A stretch of DNA of 20,000 nucleotides from an uncultured virus (IMG/VR IMGVR_UViG_3300011977_000424) (Duplodnaviria > Heunggongvirae > Uroviricota > Caudoviricetes): the IMG/VR virus record IMGVR_UViG_3300011977_000424; one strand, given 5' to 3'. This document shows, in pieces, positions 1 through 19,377 of the stretch; positions within the stretch are counted from its first letter, which is position 1; each line of letters starts with the position of its first letter. The notes under the pieces were generated by a model, which saw only the letters and a list, made by a program, of their open reading frames with translations, had not been told where the DNA came from and made no database searches. Position numbers and translations under genes: made by a program.

Positions 1-480
1 TCCGATCTTATTCAGGAAGCGGATAAGGTAGTGCTTAACCTTTCTCCACAAACTAAATTCCTCGGGTGTAGCCGGGCCTTCTTCGGCAATGTCGGAAAAT
101 ACTTCCTGTGCGGCCTCGCTGTATGGGTTGTTGTCGGTGAGGTCTACACCTCCTAACTCCTCTGCCTTATCCAGTATGCGGTCGCGCAACTCCTTGCCGG
201 CACTCTCAAAGATGAAGGTGCCAAACTGCTTCACGGCATCGTCGCTACCTAACAGTGCGCGCAATCCCTCGTGGCCTAACTTCTCATGGAACACGGTGCG
301 CTTTACATCGTCTACTCCCTGCATAGCCGGTGTATAGACATGCACACTGCCGTCCTTCCAGTCGTACCAACCTTTGGTACCGTCGCCTCCTTGGATCTCA
401 CGGCGTAAGCTCTCGTTGCTGATTGTGCTCATGTTGTCGAAGTGCACGGGCATGCCTCCCAACTGCTCGGCGGTTTCCTG
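1..480 (-). other. Zincin-like metallopeptidase domain (polyvalent MPTase type), possibly truncated by the window edge
   Basis: KGWYD...VHVY...DVKRTVFHEKLGHEGLRALLG (HExxxH at 271-288), then EAAQEVFSDIAE and SLWRKVK. Confidence 0.8.
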
Positions 481-3400
481 TGCGGCCTCAACCTGCAAGC
501 GGTACTGTTTATCGCCTTCCTGGTCGGTGAGCTTCGTCACCACAACGGCGCGTGCGCCTTTGAGCTCGGGAATAACCTTGCCGGCGGCCTCAACGCTGAA
601 ACCGTTGCCTAAGCTCTCCTGCACCCAGTTCTCCAGTTCACTTTGTGTAAAGCCTTTCTGGTAGGCACGTATCTTGCCTTTCTTATCGGTAACAAGTATC
701 TCGCTCGGGCTGTCAAGCTCTATCTTCTGCTTCTGTTTCTCGATCTCCTTCGCGTCGCGCACATTGATGATAAGCTTACCACCTGTTTTCATGTGGCGTA
801 CCATGTCACTTAGTACGTTGGCTCTCCAGTCGTCGGGAATAACATTGAGCACGGCGTTGCTGATTACTACGTCGTAGTCCTTATCAATGGCGGCATAGTC
901 GGTGAAGGTGGGGGCGCCTGCCTCGCGGTGTTCGGCTGGGTATGGTTCCACATCATCTACGGTAAAGTTGAATCCGGCGCTCTGGCCGTTCTCACTCTGT
1001 CCGCGTAACGTCATGGTACCATAGCCTAAGCCACTGCTGGCATCAAGGACGGTGAGCGTCTTACCGGTGCGCTCCTGCTCGCGCTGCATCCAGTTGCCTA
1101 TCTTGATATAGGTTTTCTCGGTGCTGCGTATCTGCGTGGAGTGCTGGCCGGTGCTCGTCTCTTGATCCTCAATCCAACGCTGGCCAAACTCATCAAACAG
1201 TGCGGTGCTACTGCGTTTGCTGATGTCGTTTGTACTATTTTTGTTACCCTCGTCGCCTTCGGGCTTCTTATCCTTGTTGTCGGCTGTGAGTTTCTTATAT
1301 TCAGCGTCGATTTTCTTCTTTTGCTCCAGGGCCTCGGCAAGCTCGGCTTCACGTGGGAAATTAGGTTCTCCGGGGTCGCCTCCCTCCAACTTATGTTTGT
1401 ATTCATCAATGGCCTGCTGATAAGCTTTGCCATTGTTGATTACTTTCTCCAACATGCGGCGGTAGGTCATACCGGCGGCGGTGTCGTCGTCGCTGAGCAC
1501 ACCTTCGTACTTAATCTTTGATGGGGCACGGAGAATCACTTTGCGGACTGGCTGAGTGCTGATTTTGAGATCAGTAGTAGGCGTGCCTACCTCAGCATCT
1601 ATGCCAAATCCGGACAGTTTCACCATTTCACCCTTCTTCAGCAAAGAATGAATATACTTGCCTGCCTCTCCGGCCTTGGTGAACTTCTGGCCCTCGGGGT
1701 GCTTATCAGAAGTGACGGTGACAGTAGAAGGATATTTACCTTCTTTGTCTGGCTTGAAGCCTGCGTCGGTGATAATCTCCTGGTCCCTGGCGTTGCCTCG
1801 TTTCAATGCCTCGAAGTTGGAAAGTGAGCGCTTATCACGGTAGAACTGATTAACTCGCTGCTCATGCTCTACCATGTATTGGCGCTTCGCCTTAATCAAC
1901 TTGTCCACCTTCTTATCCATCTTGGACTTGTCAAGGATGATTGGATTGCCGGACAGAAGGGCGACAACGCTTGCTGGGTCGAAATCGCTATCATCACCGG
2001 CGGCTCCTTCGTCAAAGCTTCGTGCCTCGCTTCCATTGCTGGCGCTTACCTTAAAGGCGTCGATCATCCTCTGTTTGGTAGACACAAGCTGATATTTATA
2101 GAGATCCAAACTTTGCTCGGTAGCATAGTAGAACACTTCTACTTTGTCATCGTTCTTGTCTCTTGCAAGCCAGTTGCCCTGACGGGCGCCACGGCCATTC
2201 TCCTGTGTCACGTTGGCTGGGTTCCAACTCATATCTACATGGTGGATAGCAACCATGCGCTGTTGAATATTCAGTCCTGTACCGGCGTTCTTAGCACCTC
2301 CAATGAGAATACGAACGGTACCGTCGTTCATCTTCTTACAAAGCTCAGCGCGTTTCTTGTCTGTATTAGCCTTGTGAATATCGAAAATCTCTTCCTTGGG
2401 GATTCCGTAATCAGTGGAGAGACGATTGATGAAGTCTGTGTATACGTCATATTCCTTCTTACCGTCGGGCACACCAAGGTCACAGAAAATAACTTGTGTG
2501 CCTTTGTCAGCACTGAATTTGTCGTATATTTTCTTTACGTTGTCACACACGTAGGTAATCTTACCTCCGTCGCCGTCGTCCATATCGGGCTTCACCAACT
2601 TAACGTTGATGGCTGCCTTAGTACTGATATTGGTTGCCAACAATGCCCACGGTTGATCCTGTCCACTCGCTGTTTTGTCGGGGATACCAAAATATCCTCC
2701 ATGATGGTTCCTGACCATGTTCAACACTTCACGGGTAATCTCTTTAAGTGAATCACTGGCTGGTACCGTGACGACGTGGACATTCATCTTCGGCTTGGGC
2801 AACTGTAAGTTGAGGTCGTTGCGCACATCGGCTACCTCTGTATAGAGCTTCGCAAGCTCTGCCAGGTTTTCAAAGTTCCTAAACCGTGCCTTGTCTACCA
2901 ATTCGCCTTTGTAGTCGAACTCGCCTTCGGTAGAACACTCTGCAAAGTTGGCGGCCCAGGCATCAAAGGTATTGAAGCCAAGCTCCTTCATCTTGTTGGG
3001 GCGTATATACTGGAACAGACTGTACAACTCCACAAGTGAGTTACTGATGGTGGTACCTGAAGCAAGTATCAATCCTTGGTCGCCTTGGTGAAGCTGCTGC
3101 AGATAGCGTGCTCCACAAAGCAAGGCCATAGAGCGTGCACTTCCTTCGGGGTTGCTAAGTCCGGCGATCCTGTTATGGGTTGTGACGTATGCAAGGTTCT
3201 TGAATTGCTGGCACTCGTCCACAAACAGATAGTCCACGCCTAAGTCCTCAAAGGTAAACTCGCGGTCTACCTTCCTATCTAATAGACGCTGGACCTTTAC
3301 CTTTAGTCGTTCTCTTCGCTTCTCCAGTGCCTTCTGTTGGCGCTTGGTGAGTTGAGAGTTGCCGGACGCCTGCTTTAGTATTTCTATCGCTGCTTCAAGC

Positions 3401-6400
3401 TGGTCGATCTGTTCTTGCAAAATACCGGTCTCTATTTCTTCCTTGTGGGGCAACATACCATATTGCTCATGGCTCAGGATAACGCAATCCCAGTCGTTCA
3501 CGGCAATGCGTGAAAGCATCTGCTTGCGGTTCTCCTTCTTGAAGTCGTTGTCCATAGGAGCAAGCACACGCGCAGTAGGGAAGGCTTCGTGAAACTCCTT
3601 CACCATCTGTGGCACGGTAGCCTTCAATGCAATAATCATTGGCTTTTTGGCAATGCCCATACGGCGCATTTCCATAATAGCACTGTGCATAACCAACGTC
3701 TTGCCGGCGCCGACAATATGATCAATAATGCCTCCGCGATTGTTAATGAGCATCCAAACGGCATCCTTCTGATGAGGGCGCAAGGTCTTACCCTGCAAGC
3801 CTGGTATCTGGAGGTGGCTTCCGTCAAACTTCGGAATAACGGTAGTATTAAACTTCTCGTTATAAATCTTGGTTAGGCGGTCGGAAATATCGTGGTGCGC
3901 ACTGATAAAGTCCTCGAATTTCTCGCGGATCTGGTCTATCTTATCGTTGGCACTGTTGGTCTCGTCCTCGTCGGTATATTCGTGGCCGTCTCTGTCTTTA
4001 AGTCTGACAGTTACCTTATTGTTCGTTAATGCGGCCTCTATGAGTTTTTGATTATTGCAGTGCTCGGTCTTCCACTCGTTGGCTTTGCCGGATGTCTCAT
4101 AGCCTTCAATATAGACGTTAAACACGTCGGCTTCTGGACTATAAACAATACCGGTGTTGGCATTATAGCGGTCTACGCCTAACAGGTCTTGAATGAAGGC
4201 GGTATAGATGTCGTCGGGTACCCAACGGGCTCCCATGTGGATGGCAATACCAATAAATGGGATGTCGGCTGGCTGCACGGCTTTCAGAGCCTCAACATTC
4301 CTGTCAAAGCGGTGATCCATCTTCGCGGCGGCCTCAGCTTCTTTCAGCTTGGCTTTAACATTGCCACTAAGATATAAGTCGCGCATTTGGTAGCCTCCAC
4401 CGGGTTCCTCAAACACAACGCCGTCTACCTTGTCTATCCAGTCCGGGCCTAACTTAGATTCCATGTACTCGGGGCGTATCTCTCCATACTCGGCGAGTGA
4501 CAACGTAATCATTTCAGAAGGCGTGCTGGCGCTGTCAAGGTCAATCTTGCTCTTGATGGTACTCTTCTCGAAGATGTCGCTAAGGCCGGCAAACTTGCCG
4601 TCGTTCATCTTCTCCAGGGATAGGATGCTATAACCGTCGATGTCCTTCTTGATAAAGTCGTTCTTCTTATCATTCAGACGGCCATAGTGGGCTACAAAGT
4701 TGTTGTAGGCCTGTTTGAGCTTGGCACGCAACAGTTTCACCTGTGCTTCTTCTGCTCCTCCTATCTCCTCGGCAATGAGCTGCTTCATGGCGGTGCGCAC
4801 GGGGATCATCAGGCGTATCTTGGCGGCCTGGCTCGCAAGTTTAGGATCGGCAAGGAACTGGAAGGTTCCTGATTTGTCGCCTTTGGGCTTGGATAGGTAG
4901 CCAAACTTGCCGTTCTGCTCCACAATGTTACCGTCGCCTTGGTAGTCACCATTGCCTACATACTCTTCGCGCACTGCGTCGTAAACCTGACGTGAGCTCT
5001 TGGTGGTATCGTAAAGCTTACCCTTGCGGCTGGCTGGTACCACGTATTTGTCGATGAGGTCTGTGAGCTTCTGGGCTATCTCGGCGGTGCTCAGGTCTGA
5101 GGTGAGGCCGTAAGCGTCGCCTCTGTACTGGTTACCAAGTTTGATGTTGCCGATAACCATTTCAGGATGCTTTCCGTAATAGCCATTGTAGTGCACAACG
5201 GCGCTTTCCCACTTCTGCTGTATCTCTTCTTCATAGTCGCTCAGGAATGGAGTTTCTATGTCAGATAGGTACTGCTCGGTGCGTGTGGCTGTCTTATCCT
5301 CTCCGTCTTTATACTTGCGGAAGAAGATAATATCAGTAACAGGATTGGTACCGGCTCCTTTGAAGGCGTTATCCGGCAAACGCACGGCTCCAAGTATCTC
5401 ACAGTTGTCTGCGATATACTTGCGCACAAGCTGGTTGCCCTTCGTGTCCATGATGGCATTGCTGGTCATTATATAACCAATGCCTCCGGGCTTCAAAAGG
5501 CTGATGTTCTTAACCGTGAAATAGTTGTGGATGCGGCTCTGAGCAAACTTCTTGACGGGTTCACTGGTGCCCTTCCATGACGGATCGTTGACGGCAATAT
5601 CGCCAAATGGGATATTACTGCCTACTACGCTCATACTATTGTCAGGGAATCCGGCATCCTGGAAACCGATAATCCTAATGTTGGCATCGGGATAGAGCAA
5701 CTTCACAATATTACCGGTGAGCCAATCAAGTTCGGTACCGTAGATCTGGGTACGCTGCTGCATGCTCTTAGGCATGGTTCCTTCAAGCACACCACTACCG
5801 ATACTGCCGTCAAGGAAACTGCCTCCTCCCTTGTAGCCTGCACGGTCAAGGAAGTGGTTAATGCCTCGGGCTACATCAACAGGGGTGTAATAGCTCGTCA
5901 GGGCGGCATGTTGGATGTCGTCAAGTAGTTTGTGCTCGTTGTGAGGGTCTATTTCCTCGAGTATGTCGGCAAGCTTAGCTACATCTGCTGATCCACGACG
6001 GCGCATGTAGTCGTAATCATACCACATACTGCCGTCGGTGCCTCCCCATCCTCTGAACTTGCCAAGCTCGGCACGCTCCTCGGGGGTGGCTGGTCTGCCC
6101 TGGCGCAAACAGTCTCTCAGTATCTCAAGGGCGCGTATGTTAGTGCGCAAGCGCTGGCCGGCGTTCATGTTGTCGATGTCGGTGGCATCGTCGGGATAGA
6201 GATAGTTGCGCGTGTTAAGCGGCTTCTCTTTCTCGCTTGCGGTCTTGGTACTGTGATCGTCCGGCCTTATATCGTCCTTTACTTCTGGCTTGGGCTTTGA
6301 GGCTGGTTTGCTTGCTGGCGTCTTGCTGCCAGTCGGCGCTGGCCGTCCTCCACGATCTGGTTTATCCAGTCCGCCATTGACGGGTCGCTGTCCTCCTCGT

Positions 6401-9400
6401 CCTCCGTCTGCATGTACTGTTCCTGCATCTGGGCTCTCAGTATCTCCGAAATCTGATCTGTCGAATAAGTCCCCTGAACTCGTAGGTCGTGTTCCTGGTC
6501 GTCGTACGCTTCCTGAGTGTCCTCCAGGCTTGCTTCCAGTTGTCCCTGCTGAAGAAGCTGCTCCAGTTCCTCCGGCCTGAACTCCTGCATCAGATCCAGT
6601 CTTTGCTGTGCCCAATACTCCCGGCTTTGGATTAGCTGGTTTCTCAGCTCCTCCACCTGTTGCTGTTGTTTCTTGTCCATGGTTATCTGTCTTTACTTCA
6701 TGTTCTGTTGGCAAAGATACGGAATTTTCCGGCTTCTTGGTCTCAGGAAGGGTAATATCTTCCCAATCGGCCACTTCATACATCACTGGAGCCAGGCCGG
6801 TATCAAGCACGGGCTGGCCGGTTGTCTCAAAGTCGGTAACGGTGGCCGGCTCGCCTTTGTATATCACCTTATCACCGATATTCAGTTTCGGGTGCTCGGC
6901 ATGGGCGGCGTTCTCACGTGCAAGTAGCTCCTCGGCGGCATCTATCTGGCCCTTCACCTTTTCAAGCTCTATTTCAAAATGACGGTGCTTGTTCAGTGTA
7001 TGGCTGCCATTCATGCTGTTTGTTAGCTGGTCTCTGAGATCTCTTAATCTCGTCAGCTCTTGTTTGAGAACATCGGCGGTATCAGTAGCATGGTCAGATG
7101 CATATCTAACTGCGGCTTTGGCGTTCACATCCTTCAAGGCGCTAAAGAACTTTGATGAGCTCAGTGTGAGAAGGTTCTTCTCGCTTAGATAATCTTCATC
7201 GGTAGGCTTTAATGGGCTGGCGGCTTCATCTTGCTTGGCTGCCTTCCTCTTCTCGTAGTCGGCAATAAGCTTGTTAGCCTCATCAACGGCTTTCTTTACA
7301 AGCTGGGTAAACTTCTCATCACCTACGGCGCTCTGTGCCTCAGCTATCCAACGTTTCAGATAGTCGCGCTGTTCATCGTTCTGCATGGGTTGTTTCCCAC
7401 TGCGGATGGCATCAACCATATCACGCACAATGAAGTTGCGCATGAGCTCGAAATCTTCAATACGTTTGAGCACATGTTTGCTGCCTTGTGTCAATGCAAG
7501 GTCTATCTTGGCCTGCTCAAGTATCTTGTTGATGCGTGCAAGGTCGGGGCGTCCGCACTCGTTCCATACGAAATAGAACTTATCGCGCTCGGGGTCACCC
7601 TTCATTCCTCTCAATACGGCATATTCGTAGGTAGGCTCGTCGATATAGTGAAGATGGTCGCCGGCATCGCTAAGGATCTCATAACCTTTCTTTCCGTCGT
7701 GTGACTTCTGCATCTTCACTTGGTTCTTACCCTCGCGTGCCCACTGGTCGATGTATTCAGCAACAGTCTTATAACCTTCTCCCCAGTCCTGCTTCTCATT
7801 CAGGAGCATCTTAGCCATTTCGCGCTTGCGTGGGGTAAGGGTATTAAGATACTGCTCCACTGCATCGGCGGTGCGGTTATCATTGCCTCCTTCCTGTGGT
7901 GCTGGATCCTCGGCGGCTGGTTGCACGGTGTCGGTAGTCTTAATGCCTAACTGCTCGTCGGCTTTCGGGTTCTGGGGCTCTATCATGTCAAACAAGGATG
8001 GCTCCTGAACTGTTGCCTTCTTTGATTTGGCTGCCTTGGTGGGCTTAGACTTTGGCGCTGGTGTCTCGGGAACTTCATAGCCAGTACTCCTCGCTAAACG
8101 CTTCATATCCTCTAAGAAGGTGGAAAGCGGTGTATCAACGGCTGTGAAATGGTTACTCTCGCTTCGTCCTTCTCCCTGCAGGCGGTACATGATACGGCCT
8201 AACACAAGGTCGTCAAAGTCGTTGCGGTCAAGATTCAAATTGATGTAGATATACTTGCCGGTGCCCGGAAGGTCTATCTTCATATAGATGTCACCTCCTA
8301 TCGGGGCAAGGTTAGCATTGGCAAGGTTGCGTTTGTTGGTCTTTTGGCCAAGGGCGGCATAAATCTCCTTTGCCAATCGGTTGGCGTCCTTCAACGCTAA
8401 CTTTTCTGCCGACTTCATATAACCATAACTCTCATGCTCGGGGCTATTGGGGTCATGCTTGTAGAAGCCTAACAGGGCAAGTTGCTCATCTACCTTCTCT
8501 AACTGCTCATCAATCTTCTTCTGGGCGTCGTTTACTTCATCCTCAGTTGTTGCTGTTTCTGCAACACTTTCTGCTTGGCTTGCAATAGCCTCTGCTTGGC
8601 TTGCAATAGCCTCTGTATTTGCTGGTTCGTTTCCTGTTTCATCGTTATTCTGTTTACCTAATACTGATTCTGCAAACTTCTTGGCATCGGCCTCTCCGGA
8701 TTCAAAAACAAATCCTGCCTTGCCAAAGCTGGAGTAATAGCCTCCAAAACTCTTTACCTGTTTCTTAAGATCAAGGAACTTGTCTCTGTCGAAACGCTCG
8801 GTGAAGTTCACTACCCAAATATCAATGCCTTTCTTCTTGTGCCAACGCTGAGTGATGGAGTAGCCGGGGTTATCCTCGGCCTTGTCTATCATTTCTCCTC
8901 CGTCGGTACTGCCAATGGTGGGTGACGGGATGGGCTCGGGTGCCTGCGCCTCCACGGTGGGGGCTTCGGGCTCTTCTGGCTTGTTCGCTGCCTTGCCACT
9001 GTTCTCAGGCTTTGAAGCCTGAGCTACTTCATTGCGGCGGTTCACCTCTGCCAACAGACTGTCTGCATCCGTAACCTTGATTGGCTCGGCGGCTGTTTTC
9101 TCCTCCTTGGTTGGATCAAACTTCTCAACGTCGAAGTTGTCTACCTCGTCGTGGCTCGACATTTCCTTGCGATACTCCTTCATATCGTCCATCTGTCGTG
9201 CTGCATCGTAGAAAGCTTTGAGATATGGGCGTATCTTATCGCCACAGTCCTCAATCATTCTGCGTGCATACTCGGCAAACTTCCTTGCGCCGGCCTCAAT
9301 ATGGTACATGGCCATCTGACTACCAATCATGAACAGTTCAGGATCAATACCTGAGTTGAGGTTGTTCAACTTATCGCGCATGCGCTTCTTCAACTGCTCA

Positions 9401-12400
9401 TAAGCATCATCGGTGATGATCTTATTATTGGTCTTGCGCTTTTTGCTGCCTCCGGCCTTGGATTGCTCCTGCTTCTTCTCGGCGTCTTTCTTGGCCTTCT
9501 GTTGCTTTTGCTTTTCCTGATTGGCTTGCTCTGCCTGCTTCTGCTCTTCTGGGCGCACATGGTCCATATAGTCTTGAAGGGCATCACGCTCACCCATAGC
9601 TTTCAAGAGTGTGGAGAATAAATCTACACTCTTGTTGCCTCGGAATGGTCCGGTCTGCTCGCCTTTCTCCACTCGTGGGGTAAGCTCGTCAATAGCTTGG
9701 TCGCGGTCACGGATAGCGGCATTGATGAGGCCGGGCTTCATCAGCTTGCCTTGCTTCTTTAAGTTCGCGGCCATAATGTTATATGCCTGTTTGGTGATAG
9801 CATCGGTGGTACCGGCAATATCAGCCTCAGCAACATTCATGGATGTTACAGGGAGATACTTCGGACCTGAGACGACATTATAAGTGCCGTCCTCGTTCAC
9901 GCTATCTATCTTAGCCATCTGGCCGCGATACATAACAAGTTCACCCTTTTTATACTTGCTCTCAGGCTTCTCTTCTGGTGCTGACTTAGGCTTGGGAATA
10001 CCACCTATAACAAGGTGCTGCTGCACGTAGGCTTTATCCTTTGCAAGCTTGTAATCGGCAAAGGGCTTGGTCTTGCGGTGGCTGCTCTCTACCCAGGCCT
10101 TGAAGTCGTCCTTGCTCACCTCGGTAACGGTGCCTACCTTCCATCCCTTTTCATACTGTGACTTGTAAGCTTCAATGGCGGCTTCCTTGGATGGGAAACC
10201 GTACATTACCTTGTGCTCATCAAAACTGCCGTCGCTCTGGTTCACCTGGTCTACAACATACACATTTCCGGTCGTAGGATCGTCACTGAGATAGACGTCG
10301 ATATGGTCGCCGTCTACACCTTCGGTGCCTTTGATGTAACCATAGTCATAGTTCATCTTTACGCTCCATTCCTTGCCGTCCTTGCCATGGCCGGTGCGCG
10401 TGGATCCATTCGGATTTTCAATAGTAATGTCGTAACCGTCAATCTTCACATGGCCCTTCTTATAGTTGCCGGCTTCCTTTTGCGCGTCGGTCGGGTGGGT
10501 GTCCACCTCCTTGCGCGCTGCTGCAATATCGCCACTGCTGGCACTCTTTTCACGAGTGTCATTGCCAGGTGCATTTTTCTGCTCATTTCTTTGCATGGTA
10601 GCGGAATTTTCACTACCTTTGCCTTCAGAAGAAGCGTTATTCTCTTGCGTAGGAAGGAGGTCCGGCACATCATTTTGATGTTCAGCTAAGCGCCTGTCAG
10701 AGCTGTTGGAGAGTAACGCTTGCTTTGTGTATTTACGTCTGTACTCCGTAAGCTTCTGCTTGATCTTGTTCTCGTTATTATAGTGGCTGCTTACTGAAAC
10801 TTCAAGGCCTTCTTGTGATACTGTAACTGATGTAAAATACTTGGTGGTGGTGCCGTCAGACTTCTTGAACGTCTTTACGAATACATAGGAATAGGGGCGC
10901 TCGGTTATCGTGCCTTCCTTAGCTTCGCTTGGCTCTATGAAAATAACATCTGGGTCGGTAAGCGTAAGAGAAACCATACCAAACTCCTTTGTCCTTTTCT
11001 TATCCACAAGCTTATTGTACTGATGTTCTCCCATCTTCACCTTACCGATAGGTGTGCCTATCTGGTTGTTAAAGCCAAATGTAGACATCCAATTTTCAGG
11101 TGTAAGGCTTATCTCAGGGTCTACTACGGCGCCCTGCGACATGGCCTTAATTATTGAGTCTGCTTTATCTACAGAGAGGGGGGCTTCACTCTCCGGCTCC
11201 ATCACGGCAATATCATCGCCGCTGGTGCCTACTTCTCCTGATTTTGCTTCTGACTGTACAGGTACGCCTCCGTTAGCATGGCCATTGCCAGTTGGTACTG
11301 GCGCTTGCGCTGGCTTACGTTCCGGTTCTGCAGTATGCGTACCTTCAACGCCGGGCTGAGAAGGTTCTTTTCTTGGCACAGGCGTTTCGCCTTGGCCATT
11401 TCCTGTTTTAGCTGCTGGTCGTTGAGGCTCTTGATCCATTCGCCTGCTGCCTGCAACTGTGGGTTGTTGCTGATTTTCTCCATTTTCTATTTCGTTTAAC
11501 AGTTCTGCCTGTTCGGGCAACATCTGGTTAATAGCTTCCTCATAGGCTTGACGCTCTTCCTCACGTTTGGCAATATCATCGGCAATAAGTCCGTCGATGT
11601 AAGCTTCTACTTCAGGACTGGGTTCATCGGCGCTCATGGCATCAAGATAGTCTTGATACTCCTGGATCTTCGCCTGACGCTCGGCTGCTTCCTCCTCCAT
11701 GTATTGTCTCTCCTGCTCTTCCTGAGCACGAAGGAACTCTTCGGCATCGGCAATGCGGTTGCGGACTATCATGTACGTGATATCCGATGGTTTGCGTGCT
11801 GAGCTGAGCAAGTCAAGCAAGGCGTTGCGGATCTCCTGGGTGCCTACGTTCTCAAAGCCAGGAGTGCTAAGGGCGGATTCCCACATTTCGTGAACAATGG
11901 CATCTACACTCTTCCCATGTCCCTTGGGCGCAAGGAAATAGTTAATAGTGTTGCTGTCATATCCATGGCCAATGCCACGACGGGTGCCAAGCTCTTGCTG
12001 TAAACCGGTGTACTTAACGCCTCCTCGCTCTATGCCTTCCCAGTTGATGGTATGGGGGCCAAGGTGGCTTGCCACAAATTCTTCAAGGGTCTGTGGCTCT
12101 TCTGCGTCAAGCAAGAATCCGGCCTCGGTACCGTCGTACACCTCGTGGGCCTTCTTCCAAAGGTCTTGCACGTTCTTTGCACCGGAAAGGGCGGCTGCTC
12201 GCTGCTCTTCGGGTGGTAGCTTCTTAATCTCTTCGGCGTTGCGCTGGGCATAGATGTTGGTAAGGGCGCCTAATGTGTCCTTCAACTGTTTCTGTGTCTG
12301 GAGAAGTGTTTTCTCCTGCTGCTCCAGTGCGGCCATTCTGTTGGCGGCCTCTTGGATCTCTACGTCGCTGAGCTCGGCGGCTCCATCCTCGTAGTCACCG

Positions 12401-15400
12401 ATAAGGCGGCGCACGTCGGCCATTTCGCTGCCTACTCCGTTACTCCACTGCTTTTGCAGCTCCATGCGCTTATCGGTAATGAAACGCTCAGCGTCACCTT
12501 GGGTGGGGAAGTTAGCGAGTAAGCTCTCGCCACTCAACTCTTTTGGCTTCTCAGGTGCCAACACTTGCGGATTGGCCTTGGCTACCTCTGCGCGTGCATG
12601 CTCAACGGCCTTGCCTACTTTGTTGGCTCGCTCCTGGGCAAACTGCGCACGCTGCTCACCGGTCATAACGCCTTTGCGGATCTCTCCCCACTTGCGCTGC
12701 CGTTGCAGATTGTCGGAAAGCTCTTCTTGCAATCGCTTGATGAGTGCGTCTTTCTGCGCTTTCTGCTCTGGAGTGTACATATCGCCGTTGGTCTCCATCC
12801 ATTGGGTGTGGCGGTCCAGGTCGAAACGGATGCGGCGCTCATGCTCCTTCAACTGGTCCTTCTCGGCCTGTATATTCTTCAGCACTCCGTCGGTCTTGCC
12901 GTCGGGGGCGGTCGTTCTCAGATACTCGGCGGCTGCGCTTGCGTCGGTTCCCTTAGCTGAATAGTCGGGGTGGCCTTCATTGTAGCCAACAATACCGGTA
13001 GTGAAACGATCCTTCTGCTCATTGGCCTTGTTCTGCTGGGCTTCCTGCTGGAGCTGGGCTTCTATCTTGGCATAGTCGGCCTCAGCTACATAACCGGAGG
13101 CTTCCAGTGGGCTCAGGGCAAAACGGCTGCCGTCCTCTCCCTCGAAGATAGTGTTGCCGTTTGGATCCTGGCCGGCTACCTTCACATGAAGGTCTTTGCC
13201 GGCCACTCTCAGGTCGGTTTCCATACCTGGCATTAGTCCTACGCTGGCTCTCAGGTTCCTATACTGATCGTCCAACTGCATGGTGAAGGTGTCCACATCG
13301 GCTTTCAATGCGTCGTTCAACGGCACGGCCTCACCAAGCTGCTTGATACGTCTCACTGGTACCTGTTGTGTCTGGCCGTCCTCATCAACAACAATAATAC
13401 CTCCGTACTGGTTGGTGACGTCACCACTCTTCACGTAGGCTTCGGTACCGTCGTCAAGCAATACGGGAATAATAGTGCCCTGGTCGCTGACTACGGTCTG
13501 CAATTGCTCTCGCCGTTCCTGCTCATAGTCGGCGGTCTGCTGATAGATGCTGTCATCCTGTCCTGCCTGTGCTTCCTGCACATCAAGATAAGCCTCAACG
13601 GCTTCTCTTTGGTAGGGCGTGAGGTTCTGACCGTCCAGGAACTGTTGCACGGCATCATCGTCACCGGCCTCAACAAGTGCGTTAAGGTCGTGAACAAACT
13701 TCGCGTTCTTTGGCTCTGACATTGGGAAAAGCATGTCCATACGGTGACGGGCAAGTCTATTCTCATATTCCAGTTGTGGCAATACGCTCCTGTCCTCGGC
13801 GGCTGATGCTCCGTGGTTATAGGCTGCCTCTCTACGCTGCTGGGTAGGTGTCAATGGTGCTTCGCCTTCTCCGGCGCCTGTGCCTCCCTGTGGTGCTTCT
13901 GGGCCTTGTCCTGCCGGCTGTTGTCCTGCTGGTCCTACTGGCTTTTCAGGAGAAACACCACCGTCCCCACCGGTGCCTCCGCTATCGACTGGGGGCAATC
14001 CGCGTGGGGCGTCGGGTGGTGTCGGGACGTTGGGAGATTCGTCTATATCTTGTGGCGCCTGGTCGGCTGGCTGTTCAGGTTCCTGTGACTGTTGTGCTCC
14101 TGGGCCTGCCTGCTGGCGCTCTTCTGTTGCATGGTCGTAAATGGTTGGTGGCGCGTTCTGAATGTCGGCGCGCAATGCTTCCTGATAAGCCTTAACAATA
14201 CGTTGTTCTGCTGGCGTGCGGAAATGCCCGTCGCCGGCATCTACTACTTGCTCTCCTTCCTGCAAAAGCGATGTGGCCTCACGCTTTGTGTGGCCCTTCA
14301 TAGCTGCTTGAAGTGCACCTTTGCTCAGGCCCATGGATGCTTCAAAGTTCTCTGCATACATTGTGGCTGCCTCGGTGCCTTGCTGGAGATCATTGTAAAC
14401 CTGGCGGTAGGAGTTGAAAAGATTAGCCTCATCTTCGGTGAGCTCTTCACCTCGGTTGCGGCGCTCGGCTACGTCTGAGAACTTCTTGGCGTTCTGGAAC
14501 AGATAGACGGCTTTCTTCTCTTCATCGGTGAGCTCTTCACCTCGCTGTTGCTTGGAAACAACTTGCTCGTACTGTCGGCGAAGGTCGTTCTGGAGATAGA
14601 TATTGTTATACATCCCCTCCAGGGCTCCGGTAGTGTTCACCTCTTTCTGCCAACGTAGTCTGTCGTTGTCTTTGTCTGCATCTGCGGCGCTATCGTAGTG
14701 GCGGCGGTCTATAACTCCTCCATCTTGGTTGTATGTTGTCAGGGTGGCTCCGTCGCCGTATTCGTCGGGTGTAACCTCGCTGTTGATAACAGGTGAGAAG
14801 GCATCTGGGCGCTTGCCCTCGATAACATTCATCATCTTGGCCTTGGTAGTCTCTGGAACATCTGGATCACGAAGTAACTGCATATACTCGGGGGTGTGCT
14901 GGCGCATAACCTCGTAGTCTGCATCTGCCTTGCTCCTTACTCCTGGCTGCTCTGCCTCTTGTGGGCCTCGGCTGTCCTGGCCCATCTTCAAGAAGGCATC
15001 GTAAAGACCTGCATATCCCTTTTCATTCAACACATGAAGGTCGTCGTCGTTGAATTGAAACTTTCGGTTGAACTCTTGCTGATTACGGAAGTTGAGATAC
15101 TTGGTAGCCTTGTGGGGCAAGCCTAACAGGTTCAAAGAAACATAGCTCTCTAAGAAACTTTCTGCGGCATCCTTGCCGGTGGGTGTGAAGGAAGGATCGG
15201 AGGCCATACGCTCCAGGAGTGAAGATGTGCCCATAATACCGGCGTCGGCGGCTGTGCCTAATTGACCTCCAAGCACATTAGCCCACACACCTTTGCCTCT
15301 GGTAAGGAACTGGCCCACGGTGTTTCCCTGCATGAGTGCACCCATGGCGGCGTTTTTAGCGGTGTTCACAACGGTATGGCCTACTATCTTGCCTACTGAT

Positions 15401-17457
15401 GTCTGGTAGGTGGTGCCGTCGCCTTGTGGCTGGCCGTTACGGTAAGCCTCGTTTACAGGAGTGGCAATTACAGACTGTCCACCAAAGGCAATAGCATTAC
15501 TGATGGCGCTCTTCTTGATTGTGAAGCCTAATTGCTTTTCAAGAATAACCTTTGCGGCACGCTCGGCGGCGGCTTTCTCCATACCATGTGATGTGAGGTC
15601 GGCGGCAAGCTTTTTAACGGCTCCTGCGGCTGCCTTCTCGCTTACCTTAGCACCAACACCACCTGGAATAAGATAACTCCACATGTCGGCGCCAAAGGTC
15701 ACGGCGCCACTGGCTACTTTGTCCCAGAAGCCTGCATGCTTCTGTTCATAGTCGCTGTTGGCCATATCCTCCAACCAATTCTGATAATTGGTCTGTGTGA
15801 GCTTGCGGCCTATCTGTCCGATAATGGAGTTACCTAAGCCGGTCTTTAGAATGTACTCCAGACTGCTCTTTGGCATCTGACGGGCCATTTCTGTCTGCAT
15901 GTAGCGGTTAGTAATGGCGTCGCCTAACTGCTTCTCAACATAGGTGCGGTAATAGTCGCCTAAGTCCATTCCTAATTTGTCGGCGTTGGCCTGCATCTGC
16001 TTGACAAACTCGGGGTTCTGTACGATCTTCTTCACCTGAGTAGCGAGATAGTCAAGCACCTTCTTTGGATCCTTGGCCTCGTTTGCTTGGCGTGTAGCCT
16101 CACCAACCATACCCATACGCATACCTCCAGGCATACCGGCAAAGTTGTCACTGTTGATTTCCTTCTCAAATGCTTGCTTGGCCAACTGGTCAAACTTGCT
16201 AATGGCATCATCAATGGGTTTCTGTGCCAGGTCGCCTATCATGTCGGCGGCTACGCGGCTATTCTTATCACGCTGGAGAAACTCTTGCTTGGTAAACATG
16301 CCACTGGTGAGCATACCGGCGGTGCCCTCGTCATAGCCTTTCTGCTGAAGTAGCTTTTGTGTGTATGCTTTCACAAGGTCATAGTAACCTTGGCCACTAT
16401 AACGGTTCTGGGCGCTGCGCTTATCCTCATCAGTCCAATTAGCGTTTGCCGTAACAAAGTTGGGAAGGAAGTCCGGACGATAATAGATCTCCTCAATAGC
16501 TTTCTTCACCTCCTCAGTGGTGGCGCCTTCTGGGATATTGCCTACTATCTTGGTGGCAATGTCGGCGGCACTCTGGCGCATATACATGCGGCGTGCCTCA
16601 TCGTATAGGACCTTCTTTGTCTTAGGAGGAAGGTTCGTTAGGTCTTTATCGGCATTAACAAGATCATTAACCTTATGAATGTCCGAAGCTCCGTTGGTTA
16701 ACTGCACATACTGATACATCTTGTTCAGCAAATCTTCGGTCTTGTATTGATCTCTATTCTCGACAAAGCCTTTTGAGGATTTGCCTTCTGGCAATTTTGC
16801 AGTAATAACTGCTTCTGGCTCCTGTTCCAGTTGTGGAACATTAGCCATTTGTGCCTGTTGCTGTGCGGATGGGGCCTGCTGTTGCTGCTCCTGAGCTCCG
16901 GCGAAAGGTTGGTTAGCCTGCTGAACGGCTGGCGTTGCCGGCTGGCCGTTGGCTGCTCTATCCGGGTCGGTTGCCTGCGAAATAAGGCCTGATGCGTATG
17001 GGATTTTTACATCCTGAGACTTCACCACAGGCTTAAATTGGTACTGCGACTGATTAATAGCCTGTTGCAGCAAACTGCCATTGAGCACCGGATTTTGTTG
17101 CGCTGCTTTCTGCTGCTCTGCGCGCTGTCTCTGTTGTTCCTGGGCTGTGGTCGTCGGTGCCTGCTGCCTCTGTTGCTGAGGTGCGGCGGCTTGGGCCTGC
17201 TGTGCCGGCTTGGCGTTTGGATCCTTAGTGTTCACGTAGATAGGTTTGTCAGTCTCTACAAACTGATAGCCGGCATCGTAGGCTGAGCTAAGATCATCCA
17301 TCTTAACATCACGCTCCGTGCCTTCTTTGTCTCTCATGCGGATGGTAGCATCTGGCATTTCACTGACAAACATATCTACTTTGTCGTTGAACTTATCGGC
17401 TGCAACAGTGCGCTGCTTGCCGTTCACATTCAACATGTATCTCTTGGTGTTTGGCAT
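1..17457 (-). CDS. Giant polyvalent internal-virion/ejection protein with a DarB-like methylase-helicase; 3'-truncated by the window edge (>5819 aa)
   Basis: ATG at 17457 (MPNTKRYMLNVNGKQRTV...) lies 23 nt after the stop of the 443-aa gene. The same frame is open at the window's left end (...FSLWRKVKHYLIRFLNKIG). Manual translation of long stretches shows no stop. The ORF track lists no long minus ORF here, as expected if no stop falls in the window. Many recognisable domains lie in this frame. Confidence 0.95.
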   Translation of the reverse strand, partial: MPNTKRYMLNVNGKQRTVAADKFNDKVDMFVSEMPDATIRMRDKEGTERDVKMDDLSSAYDAGYQFVETDKPIYVNTKDPNAKPAQQAQAAAPQQQRQQAPTTTAQEQQRQRAEQQKAAQQNPVLNGSLLQQAINQSQYQFKPVVKSQDVKIPYASGLISQATDPDRAANGQPATPAVQQANQPFAGAQEQQQQAPSAQQQAQMANVPQLEQEPEAVITAKLPEGKSSKGFVENRDQYKTEDLLNKMYQYVQLTNGASDIHKVNDLVNADKDLTNLPPKTKKVLYDEARRMYMRQSAADIATKIVGNIPEGATTEEVKKAIEEIYYRPDFLPNFVTANANWTDEDKRSAQNRYSGQGYYDLVKAYTQKLLQQKGYDEGTAGMLTSGMFTKQEFLQRDKNSRVAADMIGDLAQKPIDDAISKFDQLAKQAFEKEINSDNFAGMPGGMRMGMVGEATRQANEAKDPKKVLDYLATQVKKIVQNPEFVKQMQANADKLGMDLGDYYRTYVEKQLGDAITNRYMQTEMARQMPKSSLEYILKTGLGNSIIGQIGRKLTQTNYQNWLEDMANSDYEQKHAGFWDKVASGAVTFGADMWSYLIPGGVGAKVSEKAAAGAVKKLAADLTSHGMEKAAAERAAKVILEKQLGFTIKKSAISNAIAFGGQSVIATPVNEAYRNGQPQGDGTTYQTSVGKIVGHTVVNTAKNAAMGALMQGNTVGQFLTRGKGVWANVLGGQLGTAADAGIMGTSSLLERMASDPSFTPTGKDAAESFLESYVSLNLLGLPHKATKYLNFRNQQEFNRKFQFNDDDLHVLNEKGYAGLYDAFLKMGQDSRGPQEAEQPGVRSKADADYEVMRQHTPEYMQLLRDPDVPETTKAKMMNVIEGKRPDAFSPVINSEVTPDEYGDGATLTTYNQDGGVIDRRHYDSAADADKDNDRLRWQKEVNTTGALEGMYNNIYLQNDLRRQYEQVVSKQQRGEELTDEEKKAVYLFQNAKKFSDVAERRNRGEELTEDEANLFNSYRQVYNDLQQGTEAATMYAENFEASMGLSKGALQAAMKGHTKREATSLLQEGEQVVDAGDGHFRTPAEQRIVKAYQEALRADIQNAPPTIYDHATEERQQAGPGAQQSQEPEQPADQAPQDIDESPNVPTPPDAPRGLPPVDSGGTGGDGGVSPEKPVGPAGQQPAGQGPEAPQGGTGAGEGEAPLTPTQQRREAAYNHGASAAEDRSVLPQLEYENRLARHRMDMLFPMSEPKNAKFVHDLNALVEAGDDDAVQQFLDGQNLTPYQREAVEAYLDVQEAQAGQDDSIYQQTADYEQERREQLQTVVSDQGTIIPVLLDDGTEAYVKSGDVTNQYGGIIVVDEDGQTQQVPVRRIKQLGEAVPLNDALKADVDTFTMQLDDQYRNLRASVGLMPGMETDLRVAGKDLHVKVAGQDPNGNTIFEGEDGSRFALSPLEASGYVAEADYAKIEAQLQQEAQQNKANEQKDRFTTGIVGYNEGHPDYSAKGTDASAAAEYLRTTAPDGKTDGVLKNIQAEKDQLKEHERRIRFDLDRHTQWMETNGDMYTPEQKAQKDALIKRLQEELSDNLQRQRKWGEIRKGVMTGEQRAQFAQERANKVGKAVEHARAEVAKANPQVLAPEKPKELSGESLLANFPTQGDAERFITDKRMELQKQWSNGVGSEMADVRRLIGDYEDGAAELSDVEIQEAANRMAALEQQEKTLLQTQKQLKDTLGALTNIYAQRNAEEIKKLPPEEQRAAALSGAKNVQDLWKKAHEVYDGTEAGFLLDAEEPQTLEEFVASHLGPHTINWEGIERGGVKYTGLQQELGTRRGIGHGYDSNTINYFLAPKGHGKSVDAIVHEMWESALSTPGFENVGTQEIRNALLDLLSSARKPSDITYMIVRNRIADAEEFLRAQEEQERQYMEEEAAERQAKIQEYQDYLDAMSADEPSPEVEAYIDGLIADDIAKREEERQAYEEAINQMLPEQAELLNEIENGENQQQPTVAGSRRMDQEPQRPAAKTGNGQGETPVPRKEPSQPGVEGTHTAEPERKPAQAPVPTGNGHANGGVPVQSEAKSGEVGTSGDDIAVMEPESEAPLSVDKADSIIKAMSQGAVVDPEISLTPENWMSTFGFNNQIGTPIGKVKMGEHQYNKLVDKKRTKEFGMVSLTLTDPDVIFIEPSEAKEGTITERPYSYVFVKTFKKSDGTTTKYFTSVTVSQEGLEVSVSSHYNNENKIKQKLTEYRRKYTKQALLSNSSDRRLAEHQNDVPDLLPTQENNASSEGKGSENSATMQRNEQKNAPGNDTREKSASSGDIAAARKEVDTHPTDAQKEAGNYKKGHVKIDGYDITIENPNGSTRTGHGKDGKEWSVKMNYDYGYIKGTEGVDGDHIDVYLSDDPTTGNVYVVDQVNQSDGSFDEHKVMYGFPSKEAAIEAYKSQYEKGWKVGTVTEVSKDDFKAWVESSHRKTKPFADYKLAKDKAYVQQHLVIGGIPKPKSAPEEKPESKYKKGELVMYRGQMAKIDSVNEDGTYNVVSGPKYLPVTSMNVAEADIAGTTDAITKQAYNIMAANLKKQGKLMKPGLINAAIRDRDQAIDELTPRVEKGEQTGPFRGNKSVDLFSTLLKAMGERDALQDYMDHVRPEEQKQAEQANQEKQKQQKAKKDAEKKQEQSKAGGSKKRKTNNKIITDDAYEQLKKRMRDKLNNLNSGIDPELFMIGSQMAMYHIEAGARKFAEYARRMIEDCGDKIRPYLKAFYDAARQMDDMKEYRKEMSSHDEVDNFDVEKFDPTKEEKTAAEPIKVTDADSLLAEVNRRNEVAQASKPENSGKAANKPEEPEAPTVEAQAPEPIPSPTIGSTDGGEMIDKAEDNPGYSITQRWHKKKGIDIWVVNFTERFDRDKFLDLKKQVKSFGGYYSSFGKAGFVFESGEADAKKFAESVLGKQNNDETGNEPANTEAIASQAEAIASQAESVAETATTEDEVNDAQKKIDEQLEKVDEQLALLGFYKHDPNSPEHESYGYMKSAEKLALKDANRLAKEIYAALGQKTNKRNLANANLAPIGGDIYMKIDLPGTGKYIYINLNLDRNDFDDLVLGRIMYRLQGEGRSESNHFTAVDTPLSTFLEDMKRLARSTGYEVPETPAPKSKPTKAAKSKKATVQEPSLFDMIEPQNPKADEQLGIKTTDTVQPAAEDPAPQEGGNDNRTADAVEQYLNTLTPRKREMAKMLLNEKQDWGEGYKTVAEYIDQWAREGKNQVKMQKSHDGKKGYEILSDAGDHLHYIDEPTYEYAVLRGMKGDPERDKFYFVWNECGRPDLARINKILEQAKIDLALTQGSKHVLKRIEDFELMRNFIVRDMVDAIRSGKQPMQNDEQRDYLKRWIAEAQSAVGDEKFTQLVKKAVDEANKLIADYEKRKAAKQDEAASPLKPTDEDYLSEKNLLTLSSSKFFSALKDVNAKAAVRYASDHATDTADVLKQELTRLRDLRDQLTNSMNGSHTLNKHRHFEIELEKVKGQIDAAEELLARENAAHAEHPKLNIGDKVIYKGEPATVTDFETTGQPVLDTGLAPVMYEVADWEDITLPETKKPENSVSLPTEHEVKTDNHGQETTATGGGAEKPANPKPGVLGTAKTGSDAGVQAGGTGAASSAGTTGSKPGGHSGSVRRPGTRPTSSGDLFDRSDFGDTESPDAGTVHADGGRGGQRPVNGGLDKPDRGGRPAPTGSKTPASKPASKPKPEVKDDIRPDDHSTKTASEKEKPLNTRNYLYPDDATDIDNMNAGQRLRTNIRALEILRDCLRQGRPATPEERAELGKFRGWGGTDGSMWYDYDYMRRRGSADVAKLADILEEIDPHNEHKLLDDIQHAALTSYYTPVDVARGINHFLDRAGYKGGGSFLDGSIGSGVLEGTMPKSMQQRTQIYGTELDWLTGNIVKLLYPDANIRIIGFQDAGFPDNSMSVVGSNIPFGDIAVNDPSWKGTSEPVKKFAQSRIHNYFTVKNISLLKPGGIGYIMTSNAIMDTKGNQLVRKYIADNCEILGAVRLPDNAFKGAGTNPVTDIIFFRKYKDGEDKTATRTEQYLSDIETPFLSDYEEEIQQKWESAVVHYNGYYGKHPEMVIGNIKLGNQYRGDAYGLTSDLSTAEIAQKLTDLIDKYVVPASRKGKLYDTTKSSRQVYDAVREEYVGNGDYQGDGNIVEQNGKFGYLSKPKGDKSGTFQFLADPKLASQAAKIRLMIPVRTAMKQLIAEEIGGAEEAQVKLLRAKLKQAYNNFVAHYGRLNDKKNDFIKKDIDGYSILSLEKMNDGKFAGLSDIFEKSTIKSKIDLDSASTPSEMITLSLAEYGEIRPEYMESKLGPDWIDKVDGVVFEEPGGGYQMRDLYLSGNVKAKLKEAEAAAKMDHRFDRNVEALKAVQPADIPFIGIAIHMGARWVPDDIYTAFIQDLLGVDRYNANTGIVYSPEADVFNVYIEGYETSGKANEWKTEHCNNQKLIEAALTNNKVTVRLKDRDGHEYTDEDETNSANDKIDQIREKFEDFISAHHDISDRLTKIYNEKFNTTVIPKFDGSHLQIPGLQGKTLRPHQKDAVWMLINNRGGIIDHIVGAGKTLVMHSAIMEMRRMGIAKKPMIIALKATVPQMVKEFHEAFPTARVLAPMDNDFKKENRKQMLSRIAVNDWDCVILSHEQYGMLPHKEEIETGILQEQIDQLEAAIEILKQASGNSQLTKRQQKALEKRRERLKVKVQRLLDRKVDREFTFEDLGVDYLFVDECQQFKNLAYVTTHNRIAGLSNPEGSARSMALLCGARYLQQLHQGDQGLILASGTTISNSLVELYSLFQYIRPNKMKELGFNTFDAWAANFAECSTEGEFDYKGELVDKARFRNFENLAELAKLYTEVADVRNDLNLQLPKPKMNVHVVTVPASDSLKEITREVLNMVRNHHGGYFGIPDKTASGQDQPWALLATNISTKAAINVKLVKPDMDDGDGGKITYVCDNVKKIYDKFSADKGTQVIFCDLGVPDGKKEYDVYTDFINRLSTDYGIPKEEIFDIHKANTDKKRAELCKKMNDGTVRILIGGAKNAGTGLNIQQRMVAIHHVDMSWNPANVTQENGRGARQGNWLARDKNDDKVEVFYYATEQSLDLYKYQLVSTKQRMIDAFKVSASNGSEARSFDEGAAGDDSDFDPASVVALLSGNPIILDKSKMDKKVDKLIKAKRQYMVEHEQRVNQFYRDKRSLSNFEALKRGNARDQEIITDAGFKPDKEGKYPSTVTVTSDKHPEGQKFTKAGEAGKYIHSLLKKGEMVKLSGFGIDAEVGTPTTDLKISTQPVRKVILRAPSKIKYEGVLSDDDTAAGMTYRRMLEKVINNGKAYQQAIDEYKHKLEGGDPGEPNFPREAELAEALEQKKKIDAEYKKLTADNKDKKPEGDEGNKNSTNDISKRSSTALFDEFGQRWIEDQETSTGQHSTQIRSTEKTYIKIGNWMQREQERTGKTLTVLDASSGLGYGTMTLRGQSENGQSAGFNFTVDDVEPYPAEHREAGAPTFTDYAAIDKDYDVVISNAVLNVIPDDWRANVLSDMVRHMKTGGKLIINVRDAKEIEKQKQKIELDSPSEILVTDKKGKIRAYQKGFTQSELENWVQESLGNGFSVEAAGKVIPELKGARAVVVTKLTDQEGDKQYRLQVEAAQETAEQLGGMPVHFDNMSTISNESLRREIQGGDGTKGWYDWKDGSVHVYTPAMQGVDDVKRTVFHEKLGHEGLRALLGSDDAVKQFGTFIFESAGKELRDRILDKAEELGGVDLTDNNPYSEAAQEVFSDIAEEGPATPEEFSLWRKVKHYLIRFLNKIG
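530..1200 (-). other. Second class I SAM-dependent methyltransferase domain
   Basis: Motif I TVLDASSGLGYG (~1018-1053), DDVEPYP, DYDVVISNAVLNVIP (~835-879), HMKTGGKLIINVR, AYQKGFTQSEL (~634-666). Confidence 0.85.
1950..3800 (-). other. DarB-like SNF2/SF2 helicase (ATPase) domain
   Basis: LRPHQKDAV; Walker A HIVGAGKT (3697-3720); Walker B DYLFVDECQ (DECQ at 3208-3219); SGTTISNS; GTQVIFCD; GTGLNIQ; motif VI QENGRGARQGN (2173-2205). Confidence 0.92.
5100..6210 (-). other. DarB-like N6-adenine DNA methyltransferase domain
   Basis: N-terminal NIRALEIL...ATPEERAELGKFRGWGG and TSYYTP. SAM-binding motif FLDGSIGSG (5791-5817), ELD, catalytic NIPF (5605-5616), IHNYF, LKPGG, GAVRLPDNAF, TDIIFFRK. Confidence 0.92.
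6279..6680 (-). CDS. Nested overlapping gene (133 aa, acidic and helical) in the +1 frame of the giant ORF, just upstream of the methylase domain
   Basis: ATG after an A-rich leader (GTAAAGACAGATAACC-ATG) and a TATCTTTG -7 box. Gene-like codons (CTG, CAG, GAG, GAC). The host frame here is a G/T/S/P/R low-complexity linker. Confidence 0.75.
   Translation of the reverse strand: MDKKQQQQVEELRNQLIQSREYWAQQRLDLMQEFRPEELEQLLQQGQLEASLEDTQEAYDDQEHDLRVQGTYSTDQISEILRAQMQEQYMQTEDEEDSDPSMADWINQIVEDGQRRLAARRQQANQPQSPSQK
6712..6719 (-). promoter_or_regulatory. Internal Bacteroidetes-type -7 promoter element for the nested gene
   Basis: Minus strand reads GGAAAATTCCG-TATCTTTG-CCAAC, 31 nt upstream of ATG 6680. 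No clear -33 TTTG. Confidence 0.65.
8532..8642 (-). CDS. Possible nested small ORF (36 aa, Q/K/L coiled coil) in the +1 frame
   Basis: GGTAAACAGAATAACG-ATG...TAA gives MKQETNQQIQRLLQAKQRLLQAKQKVLQKQQQLRMK. Below the ORF-track cutoff. Confidence 0.3.
   Translation of the reverse strand: MKQETNQQIQRLLQAKQRLLQAKQKVLQKQQQLRMK
8570..8615. repeat. Perfect 21-nt tandem duplication (about 2.2 copies)
   Basis: TCTGCTTGGCTTGCAATAGCC at 8570-8590 and 8591-8611, then TCTG. Encodes EAIASQA x2 in the main frame and RLLQAKQ x2 in the +1 frame. Confidence 0.95.
9115..9430 (-). other. Helical module that recurs in polyvalent proteins; function unknown
   Basis: NKIITDDAYEQLKKRMRDKLNNLNSGIDPELFMIGSQMAMYHIEAGARKFAEYARRMIEDCGDKIRPYLKAFYDAAR. 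Confidence 0.55.
10050..10530 (-). other. Inorganic pyrophosphatase (InPase) domain of the polyvalent-protein type
   Basis: PTDAQKEAGNYKKGHVKIDGYDITIENPNGSTR...YDYGYIKGTEGVDGDHIDV (DGDHIDV at 10294-10314)...FDEHKVMYGF (FDEHK at 10210-10224)...FKAWVESSHRKTKPF. Confidence 0.9.
10590..10621 (+). promoter_or_regulatory. Consensus Bacteroidetes promoter, antisense to the giant gene
   Basis: TTTG (10590-10593), 20-nt spacer, TACCTTTG (10614-10621), then CC. Context: TTTGCA...AATTTTCACTACCTTTGCC. Confidence 0.8.
10627..10725 (+). ncRNA. Candidate structured (multi-stem, cloverleaf-like) antisense RNA overlapping the PBECR2 C-terminal tail
   Basis: Closing stem AAGCGTTATTCTCT (10632-10645) / GGAGAGTAACGCTT (10708-10721), 14 bp with two G-U pairs. 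Inner hairpins: GGA-aggagg-TCC (10652-10663), ACATCA-ttt-TGATGT (10667-10681), CAGCT-13 nt-AGCTG (10683-10705). The stem starts 11 nt after the -7 box. Confidence 0.65.
10730..11170 (-). other. PBECR2-like (phage Barnase-EndoU-ColicinE5/D-RelE fold) putative RNase domain
   Basis: LTPENWMSTFG...TPIGKVKMGEHQYNKL...GMVSLTLTDPDVIFIEPSEAKEGTITERPYSYVFVKTF...KYFTSVTVSQEGLEVSVSSH matches my recollection of the PBECR2 family pattern. Codons here look more A/T-ended than in the flanks. Confidence 0.8.
11229..11483 (-). CDS. Nested overlapping gene (84 aa, basic and helical) in the +1 frame, just upstream of the PBECR2 domain
   Basis: A-rich initiation region TTAAACGAAATAGAAA-ATG. Amphipathic helical product (AAGEWIKSLNDQQLKQEM...YQLAMAMLTEAYLY). 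Spans almost exactly a disordered linker of the host frame. Confidence 0.6.
   Translation of the reverse strand: MEKISNNPQLQAAGEWIKSLNDQQLKQEMAKAKRLCQEKNLLSPALKVRILQNRNVSQRKRQYQLAMAMLTEAYLYSQKQNQEK
14435..14544. repeat. 20-nt exact direct repeat with a 90-nt period (intragenic 30-aa repeat)
   Basis: TCGGTGAGCTCTTCACCTCG at 14435-14454 and 14525-14544. Protein: RGEELTDEE...RGEELTEDE. Confidence 0.9.
15120..15730 (-). other. Gly/Ala-rich hydrophobic/amphipathic segment of the giant protein (membrane-insertion-like, as in ejection proteins)
   Basis: Translation includes GFWDKVASGAVTFGADMWSYLIPGGVGAKV...NAAMGALMQGNTVGQFLTRGKGVWANVLGGQLGTAADAGIMGT...SYVSLNLLGLP. Confidence 0.55.
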
Positions 17458-19328: not shown

Positions 19329-19347
19329 ATTATTTCAGTTTTTATAT

Positions 19348-19377
19348 TTTGTGAACAAAAATAATGTATTAGCTTTG
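19348..19377. promoter_or_regulatory. Overlapping divergent Bacteroidetes-type promoters
   Basis: Plus strand: TTTG (19348-19351)-N18-TAGCTTTG (19370-19377)-CC. Minus strand: TATTTTTG (complement of 19356-19363), 27 nt upstream of ATG 19328. Both lie in an AT-rich 87-nt intergenic gap. Confidence 0.7.

Follow-up and report, generated by a model that had tools for sequence, protein, structure and literature searches.

A linker that precedes an enzyme module of a giant phage gene raises the question of whether it is also a gene in its own right and, if so, what its product does beside that enzyme. The locus lies in a window of 20,000 nucleotides (nt) from an uncultured caudoviricete (IMG/VR record IMGVR_UViG_3300011977_000424), which forms the right-hand end of a virus record of 61.7 kb; most of the window is a single minus-strand gene for a DarB-like polyvalent protein. 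The original prediction, made from the letters alone, was a gene within this gene, a 133-residue open reading frame (ORF) in the +1 frame ahead of the DarB-like methylase, and this ORF is found as claimed. Conservation and frame-specific selection, both read from sequence, confirm it as a real gene, and one DNA stretch appears to encode two proteins. The features concerned are the following.

1..17457, minus strand: host gene, DarB-like polyvalent protein (first 5,819 of 7,103 codons)
2205..6216, minus strand: LPD36-methylase-SNF2 helicase module, putative partner of the nested protein
6279..6680, minus strand: nested gene, possibly TnpV-like, 133 codons from ATG to TAA in the +1 frame of the giant
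6681..6709, minus strand: A-rich leader with A at -3, -12, and -13, containing a two-codon ATG-AAG-TAA
6710..6719, minus strand: Bacteroidetes-type -7 box TATCTTTGCC, its TA 39 nt before the nested ATG

The nested protein is acidic (29 Asp or Glu versus 13 Lys or Arg residues). Its AlphaFold model is all-helical, with a five-helix core at residues 3 to 90 and a predicted local distance difference test (pLDDT) score of 85 to 92 in that core. No other +1 stretch of the giant gene stays free of stops for as long (137 codons); the next longest have 119 and 113 codons and one +2 stretch has 133, and length alone is not decisive. Host codons 3593 to 3727 form a low-complexity linker read across the nested gene. 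As had been noted, the host frame there is a string of Gly, Thr, Ala, Ser, Pro, and Arg, which make up 69% of it versus 37% of all 5,819 host codons that the window contains. The nested stop, first placed about 70 nt before the methylase N terminus, is correctly located in essence; the corrected distances are 62 nt to the conserved NTRNY motif, with which the LPD36-methylase module begins, and 219 nt to KFRGWGG.

The proposal that selection acts on the nested frame is borne out by the ratio of nonsynonymous to synonymous substitution rates (dN/dS), which is 0.06 to 0.33 in the nested frame and 0.75 to 4.5 in the host frame over the same stretch in all 14 pairs, these falling into three groups and not being independent. 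In the adjacent methylase, used as a control, the pattern is reversed, with 0.03 to 0.15 in the host frame (13 computable pairs) and 1.4 to 5.2 in its +1 shadow. Between loci L010 and L011, 33 of 46 differences are at nested third positions. Host-frame stops across the nested gene are absent from all 11 loci, whereas 5 to 10 per locus are expected after synonymous recoding of the nested frame; in the nested gene of the window, T occupies none of the 28 third positions at which it would create a host stop, versus 11 of 50 elsewhere. These data show the +1 frame to be a conserved gene under purifying selection and the giant's frame above it to be an unconstrained linker, whose sole visible constraint is to stay open, which argues that the giant is made as one polypeptide. 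Both products matter, with residue-level constraint on the small one only, because nested-frame dN/dS is low and host-frame stops are avoided. The arrangement is that of an embedded gene, one that another ORF encloses over its full length and in a different frame, with both frames under selection.

Start and stop conservation across homologues, suggested as a check of the prediction, agrees with this result. A methylase search finds five distinct relatives (L002, L004, L005, L006, and L023), and all five have a +1 ORF of 90 to 155 codons, in one case (L023) with an internal stop, that ends 44 to 104 nt before the module under an open host frame. A search with the small protein adds eight loci nested likewise (L010 to L014 and L037 to L039), which, having been found in this way, are not an unbiased count; three of them are in Prevotella, Porphyromonadaceae, and Bacteroides genomes. 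In every locus measured, the nested stop is 26 to 104 nt before the enzyme module. The nested protein of L002 is 34% identical to that of the window (E value of 9e-19), whereas the host frames match only weakly (2e-4); the type found in L004 to L006 is more distant (hhalign probability of 33, E value of 4.5e-4). In a large collection, 53 proteins are matched by the small protein, and all 17 tabulated nested proteins are net acidic, with charges from -3 to -22. In one protein of 218 residues, P0009, a domain otherwise found in the giant's frame is followed by the nested domain as an in-frame fusion, either a natural frameshift or an assembly error.

The Bacteroidetes -7 consensus is TAnnTTTG, and the promoter box claimed for the nested ORF is present as TATCTTTGCC, with no TTTG -33 element visible at the usual spacing from it. 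Of 14 family loci, 8 have a strict TAnnTTTG no more than 100 nt from the start, against a background of 3.7% per 100 nt, as do all three loci with another small ORF in this slot. The tiny ATG-AAG-TAA (6701-6693, minus strand, nested frame) is there as described but is unseen in the leaders of 10 relatives and hence not conserved. The promoter evidence is a consensus match, and the start site is predicted only. The A at -3 of the leader favors initiation in Bacteroidetes, according to passages in PMC6847099.

The complete giant gene (G000:C1 37869-59180; 7,103 codons) matches PHROG 10089 (phrog_10089; DarB-like antirestriction) and contains InPase, LPD36-N6 methylase, SNF2, Helicase_C, and second methyltransferase domains. 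Motifs of the module are, by host residue, NTRNY (3748), KFRGWGG (3800), SNIPF (3947), GAGKT (4580-87), DECQ (4747), and RGARQG (5085-94); the catalytic motif of the methylase is NIPF, not NPP(Y/F). The gut phage probably infects a Bacteroidales species, since assemblies of Prevotella, Porphyromonadaceae, and Bacteroides contain relatives of the nested gene and, among named methylases, the nearest is from Prevotella.

Profile comparisons suggest that the nested protein is a remote relative of TnpV (PF14198), below the Pfam cutoff: it scores 13.9 bits (E value of 0.054) against a cutoff of 27 bits. The loose resemblance to TnpV seen in the original prediction extends to the family, with 8 of 11 members matching PF14198, all weakly (best E value, 2.7e-5). 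A family profile without TnpV members ranks the TnpV of L031 first (15.9 bits, E value of 6.7e-4) and that of L032 third among 1,005 sequences, the decoys being 1,000 shuffles of DUF1896, one of which reached 11.1 bits. The sequence likeness to DUF1896 (PF08989) that had also been suggested is not supported: there is no match at an E value of ≤1 in 11 family members and none in three related phage records, hhalign gives an E value of 0.34, and the family profile places DUF1896 mid-rank among its own 1,000 shuffles. The order given in the original prediction, DUF1896 genes ahead of methylase-helicase genes, does fit one Parabacteroides element, where such a gene directly precedes a stand-alone methylase-helicase, its stop abutting the enzyme start.

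In the proposed explanation, a promoter, a TnpV/DUF1896-type gene, and a methylase-helicase gene would have joined the giant as one unit, and the frame of the giant would then have run across the promoter and the small gene as a linker. The small gene is probably the older frame, in a unit captured by this read-through, since members of its family also occur as ordinary genes and no sequence is conserved in the linker. From an internal promoter for the host sigma factor, the small protein is likely made independently of the giant. Of 18 loci, 17 lack a slippery heptamer, and the host frame shows no conserved start near the nested stop; the internal transcript should therefore yield the small protein only. 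In the donor cell, the acidic helical protein might bind the LPD36-methylase-SNF2 module in trans and either hold the enzyme off or keep it folded, and the virion-delivered enzyme would then act only on newly injected DNA. That the small protein is such a separately expressed partner of the methylase-helicase, an inhibitor or a chaperone as first proposed, is plausible and is given a probability of about 0.5, with an inhibitor favored by about three to two. Among the observations in support, DUF1896 abuts the stand-alone enzyme, and the enzyme and the small gene are lost together in L040. The latter (2642-14689), a related giant of 4,016 codons, is without codons ~2470 to 5142, the enzyme module, and the TnpV-like gene; the junction is just before the conserved VALLSGNP motif, and the segment from downstream of InPase to the helicase is gone.

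Similar layouts are found in other phages and mobile elements. Ten distant annotated loci were opened, chosen from methylase matches (4 of 119 phage records and 6 of 1,976 plasmid records), and in five of them an acidic +1 ORF stands just before the methylase. It is found in Klebsiella phage SopranoGao, Ochrobactrum phage POI1126, Burkholderia phage BcepIL02, and a Parabacteroides giant; in a Pseudomonas plasmid, the small gene is annotated before the methylase, with the enzyme frame open across it. The SopranoGao ORF matches 21 records of 12 cultured phages, each under a single annotated coding sequence (a giant, where named). Sinorhizobium phage PBC5, which is culturable, likewise has this layout. 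In four more loci, from Firmicutes elements, the nested gene lies further upstream and is TnpV or TnpV-like (31.6, 24.9, 150.5, and 62.9 bits versus a cutoff of 27); in L029, L031, and L032, the methylase-helicase giant contains a true TnpV gene in its +1 frame.

Several observations weigh against the partner reading or its parts. The Firmicutes TnpV genes are nested 0.4 to 3.6 kb ahead of the methylase and do not adjoin it, and parts of PMC3158075 describe TnpV in mobilizable transposons beside serine recombinases. Unrelated +1 ORFs of 56 to 64 residues, each with a strict -7 box, fill the premethylase slot in L042 (10287-10481), L043 (9960-10154), and L028 (7828-7998), whose methylases form a separate clade. 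The tenth distant locus, L027, has no nested ORF in the 4 kb read, and no small same-strand gene is annotated upstream of P1 darB. Because of these slot ORFs, the empty L027, and P1 darB, the enzyme does not always need the nested family. The model of a strict partner is weakened accordingly, as other families fill the slot and TnpV occurs kilobases away or in transposons with no enzyme mentioned in the source passages. The similarity of the nested proteins correlates with that of the methylases (Spearman coefficient of 0.63), as expected from linkage alone, and the joint loss in L040 is a single deletion. A strict -7 box is absent within 100 nt in 6 of 14 family loci; one-base variants are found at -75 in L006 and L010 and at -312 in L004 and L005, with none in L023 and L037. 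Finally, the nested ORF of L023 (679-951) has one internal TAG under a host frame that is stop-free over 649 codons, possibly through decay, read-through, or sequencing error.

This stop, together with the stretches of 110 to 120 codons that occur elsewhere in the giant, would suit a shadow ORF or remnant in a linker that is not a gene at all, a reading that is refuted by the frame-specific dN/dS and scarcely credible given the third-position bias between L010 and L011 and the far better alignment of nested than of host frames between the window and L002. It is also very unlikely that a real ORF acts mainly in cis, its translation coupling to, frameshifting into, or reinitiating a shorter methylase-helicase from the internal promoter. 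The consistently short distance from nested stop to module and the DUF1896 stop abutting the enzyme start in a stand-alone operon would fit such a role, but the lack of a slippery heptamer and of a conserved host-frame start, the strong purifying selection at the amino acid level and, weakly, the failure to find longer fused forms among 7,999 candidates (the candidate P0009 being the exception) all speak against it.

The two remaining alternatives accept the gene and give its product another task. An adaptor for packaging or ejection, Ulx-like in action, which would bring the giant into the head and travel with it, would be in line with the packaging of both DarB and Ulx in P1 virions, reported in passages of PMC11437467, and with the helical, acidic character of the small protein, which many chaperones presumably share. 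This role is doubtful, however, as there is no similarity to Ulx, the gene position is opposite, the family is also found in conjugative elements that have no capsid, and the internal host-type promoter suggests a timing apart from that of late genes. A job unrelated to the enzyme, as a DNA-mimic antidefense protein or a helper of excision or recombination that travels with the captured cassette, is a possibility to be taken seriously, though not a favored one. It would accord with the different families in the slot, with the two other nested genes of the giant, which do not adjoin the methylase, and with the role in excision postulated for Tn4451 TnpV from its likeness to lambda Xis (parts of PMC3158075). 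Against it, phages of both Bacteroidota and Proteobacteria retain the slot immediately before the methylase. Moreover, Xis is a basic DNA-bending protein, unlike the acidic, all-helical model of the nested protein.

Apart from this gene, the giant hides at least one further small gene, of 84 codons, and probably another, of 36 codons. A composition screen of its +1 and +2 ORFs of at least about 30 codons returns exactly three, of 84, 36, and 133 codons.

11229..11483, minus strand: second nested +1-frame gene, 84 amino acids, four helices
8532..8642, minus strand: probable third nested +1-frame gene, 36 amino acids, Gln/Leu/Lys-rich helix, with an A-rich leader

The 84-codon ORF shows 44 to 57% identity among three lineages, versus 17 to 35% for the host frame. 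It recurs in three more records and is conserved in L016, L018, L040 (where it outlasts the enzyme module), L042, and L043. Its product is modeled confidently from three sequences (pLDDT of 88), with no family or fold match for the protein and no -7 box within 150 nt of the gene. The 36-codon ORF recurs in seven loci (L019, L010 to L013, L038, and L039), and nested identity exceeds host identity in 15 of 15 pairs by small margins, a weaker signal than for the other two. In L002, a 58-codon +1 ORF (1796-1972, plus strand) lies just ahead of a presumably kinase-like domain and after a promoter-like stretch, which suggests one nested gene per enzyme cassette. More +1 ORFs of gene-like composition are candidates in L028 (5905-6087 and 13741-14094), L019 (2375-2536), and L037 (6864-7109 and 8436-8555).

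Further -7-type boxes are found on both strands. A divergent intergenic region of the window (19328-19416), between the virion-protein operon and a plus-strand gene, has them in both directions. Inside the giant, an antisense box TACCTTTGCC (~10607-10614, plus strand), possibly an antisense promoter, falls at host residues SEGKGSENS, behind a domain that is presumably nuclease-like; GKDS/GKDN strings of L004 and L005 resemble this region. Strong boxes also occur on both strands in the 3' part of the giant, outside the window (e.g., G000:C1 40791, minus strand, and 40904, plus strand), with no gene-like nested ORF behind them in the composition screen.

Bacteria and phages rarely have fully embedded genes under clear selection, and such genes are dropped by gene callers. 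The nested small genes suggest that such giants grow by swallowing small operons whole, the giant's frame reading each captured promoter and small partner gene as a linker. A broader view can be offered only tentatively, namely, that the low-complexity linkers of polyvalent giants conceal a set of regulators that are expressed separately, one for each enzyme cassette, and that TnpV/DUF1896 proteins are a dedicated off-switch or chaperone of DarB-type methylase-helicases across phages and conjugative elements. The layout ties two families without a function, TnpV and perhaps DUF1896, to the widespread DarB methylase-helicase and may offer an answer to how a virion-delivered DNA-modifying enzyme stays off in the donor cell.

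Among known systems, the host gene is a DarB-type methylase-SWI2/SNF2 dyad as described in passages of Iyer et al. (2017; PMC5512222), with the LPD36 GXGU motif (GWGG), N6-adenine methylase, SNF2 ATPase, and InPase in one large multidomain protein; the same passages describe DarB as a packaged protein with a cis action on injected DNA. A word search of the main text of PMC5512222 for overlapping or nested genes, DUF1896, and linker returns none. Embedded genes and each component of the layout are known, and the combination with a methylase-helicase was not found in the literature searched. P1 Ulx is likewise a small protein encoded adjoining darB, but its gene is downstream and not nested, and kinship with it is not supported by sequence either (E value of 0.57). 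Like TnpV, the nested protein is small and helical, its residues 22 to 91 aligning with profile positions 25 to 93; it lacks the N-terminal part of TnpV and has a longer acidic C-terminal tail. TnpV belongs to Tn4451-type transposons and Firmicutes conjugative elements, whereas the nested gene is in a probable Bacteroidales phage, directly ahead of a methylase. DUF1896, a family of Bacteroidales conjugative transposons to which PDB entry 2apl (PG0816) presumably belongs, shares with the nested gene the position directly ahead of a methylase-helicase in the one Parabacteroides element, and the predicted model may have a weak fold link to it. In the embedded spanin genes Rz/Rz1 of phage lambda, both frames encode parts of one complex. 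There, too, a small gene lies wholly within a larger one in the +1 frame; here, in contrast, the linker that makes up the outer frame is unconstrained, the inner gene is apparently older with its own promoter box, and several occur in one giant. The present case features a Bacteroidales clade with its own promoter type, synteny with DUF1896, and two or three nested genes in one giant.

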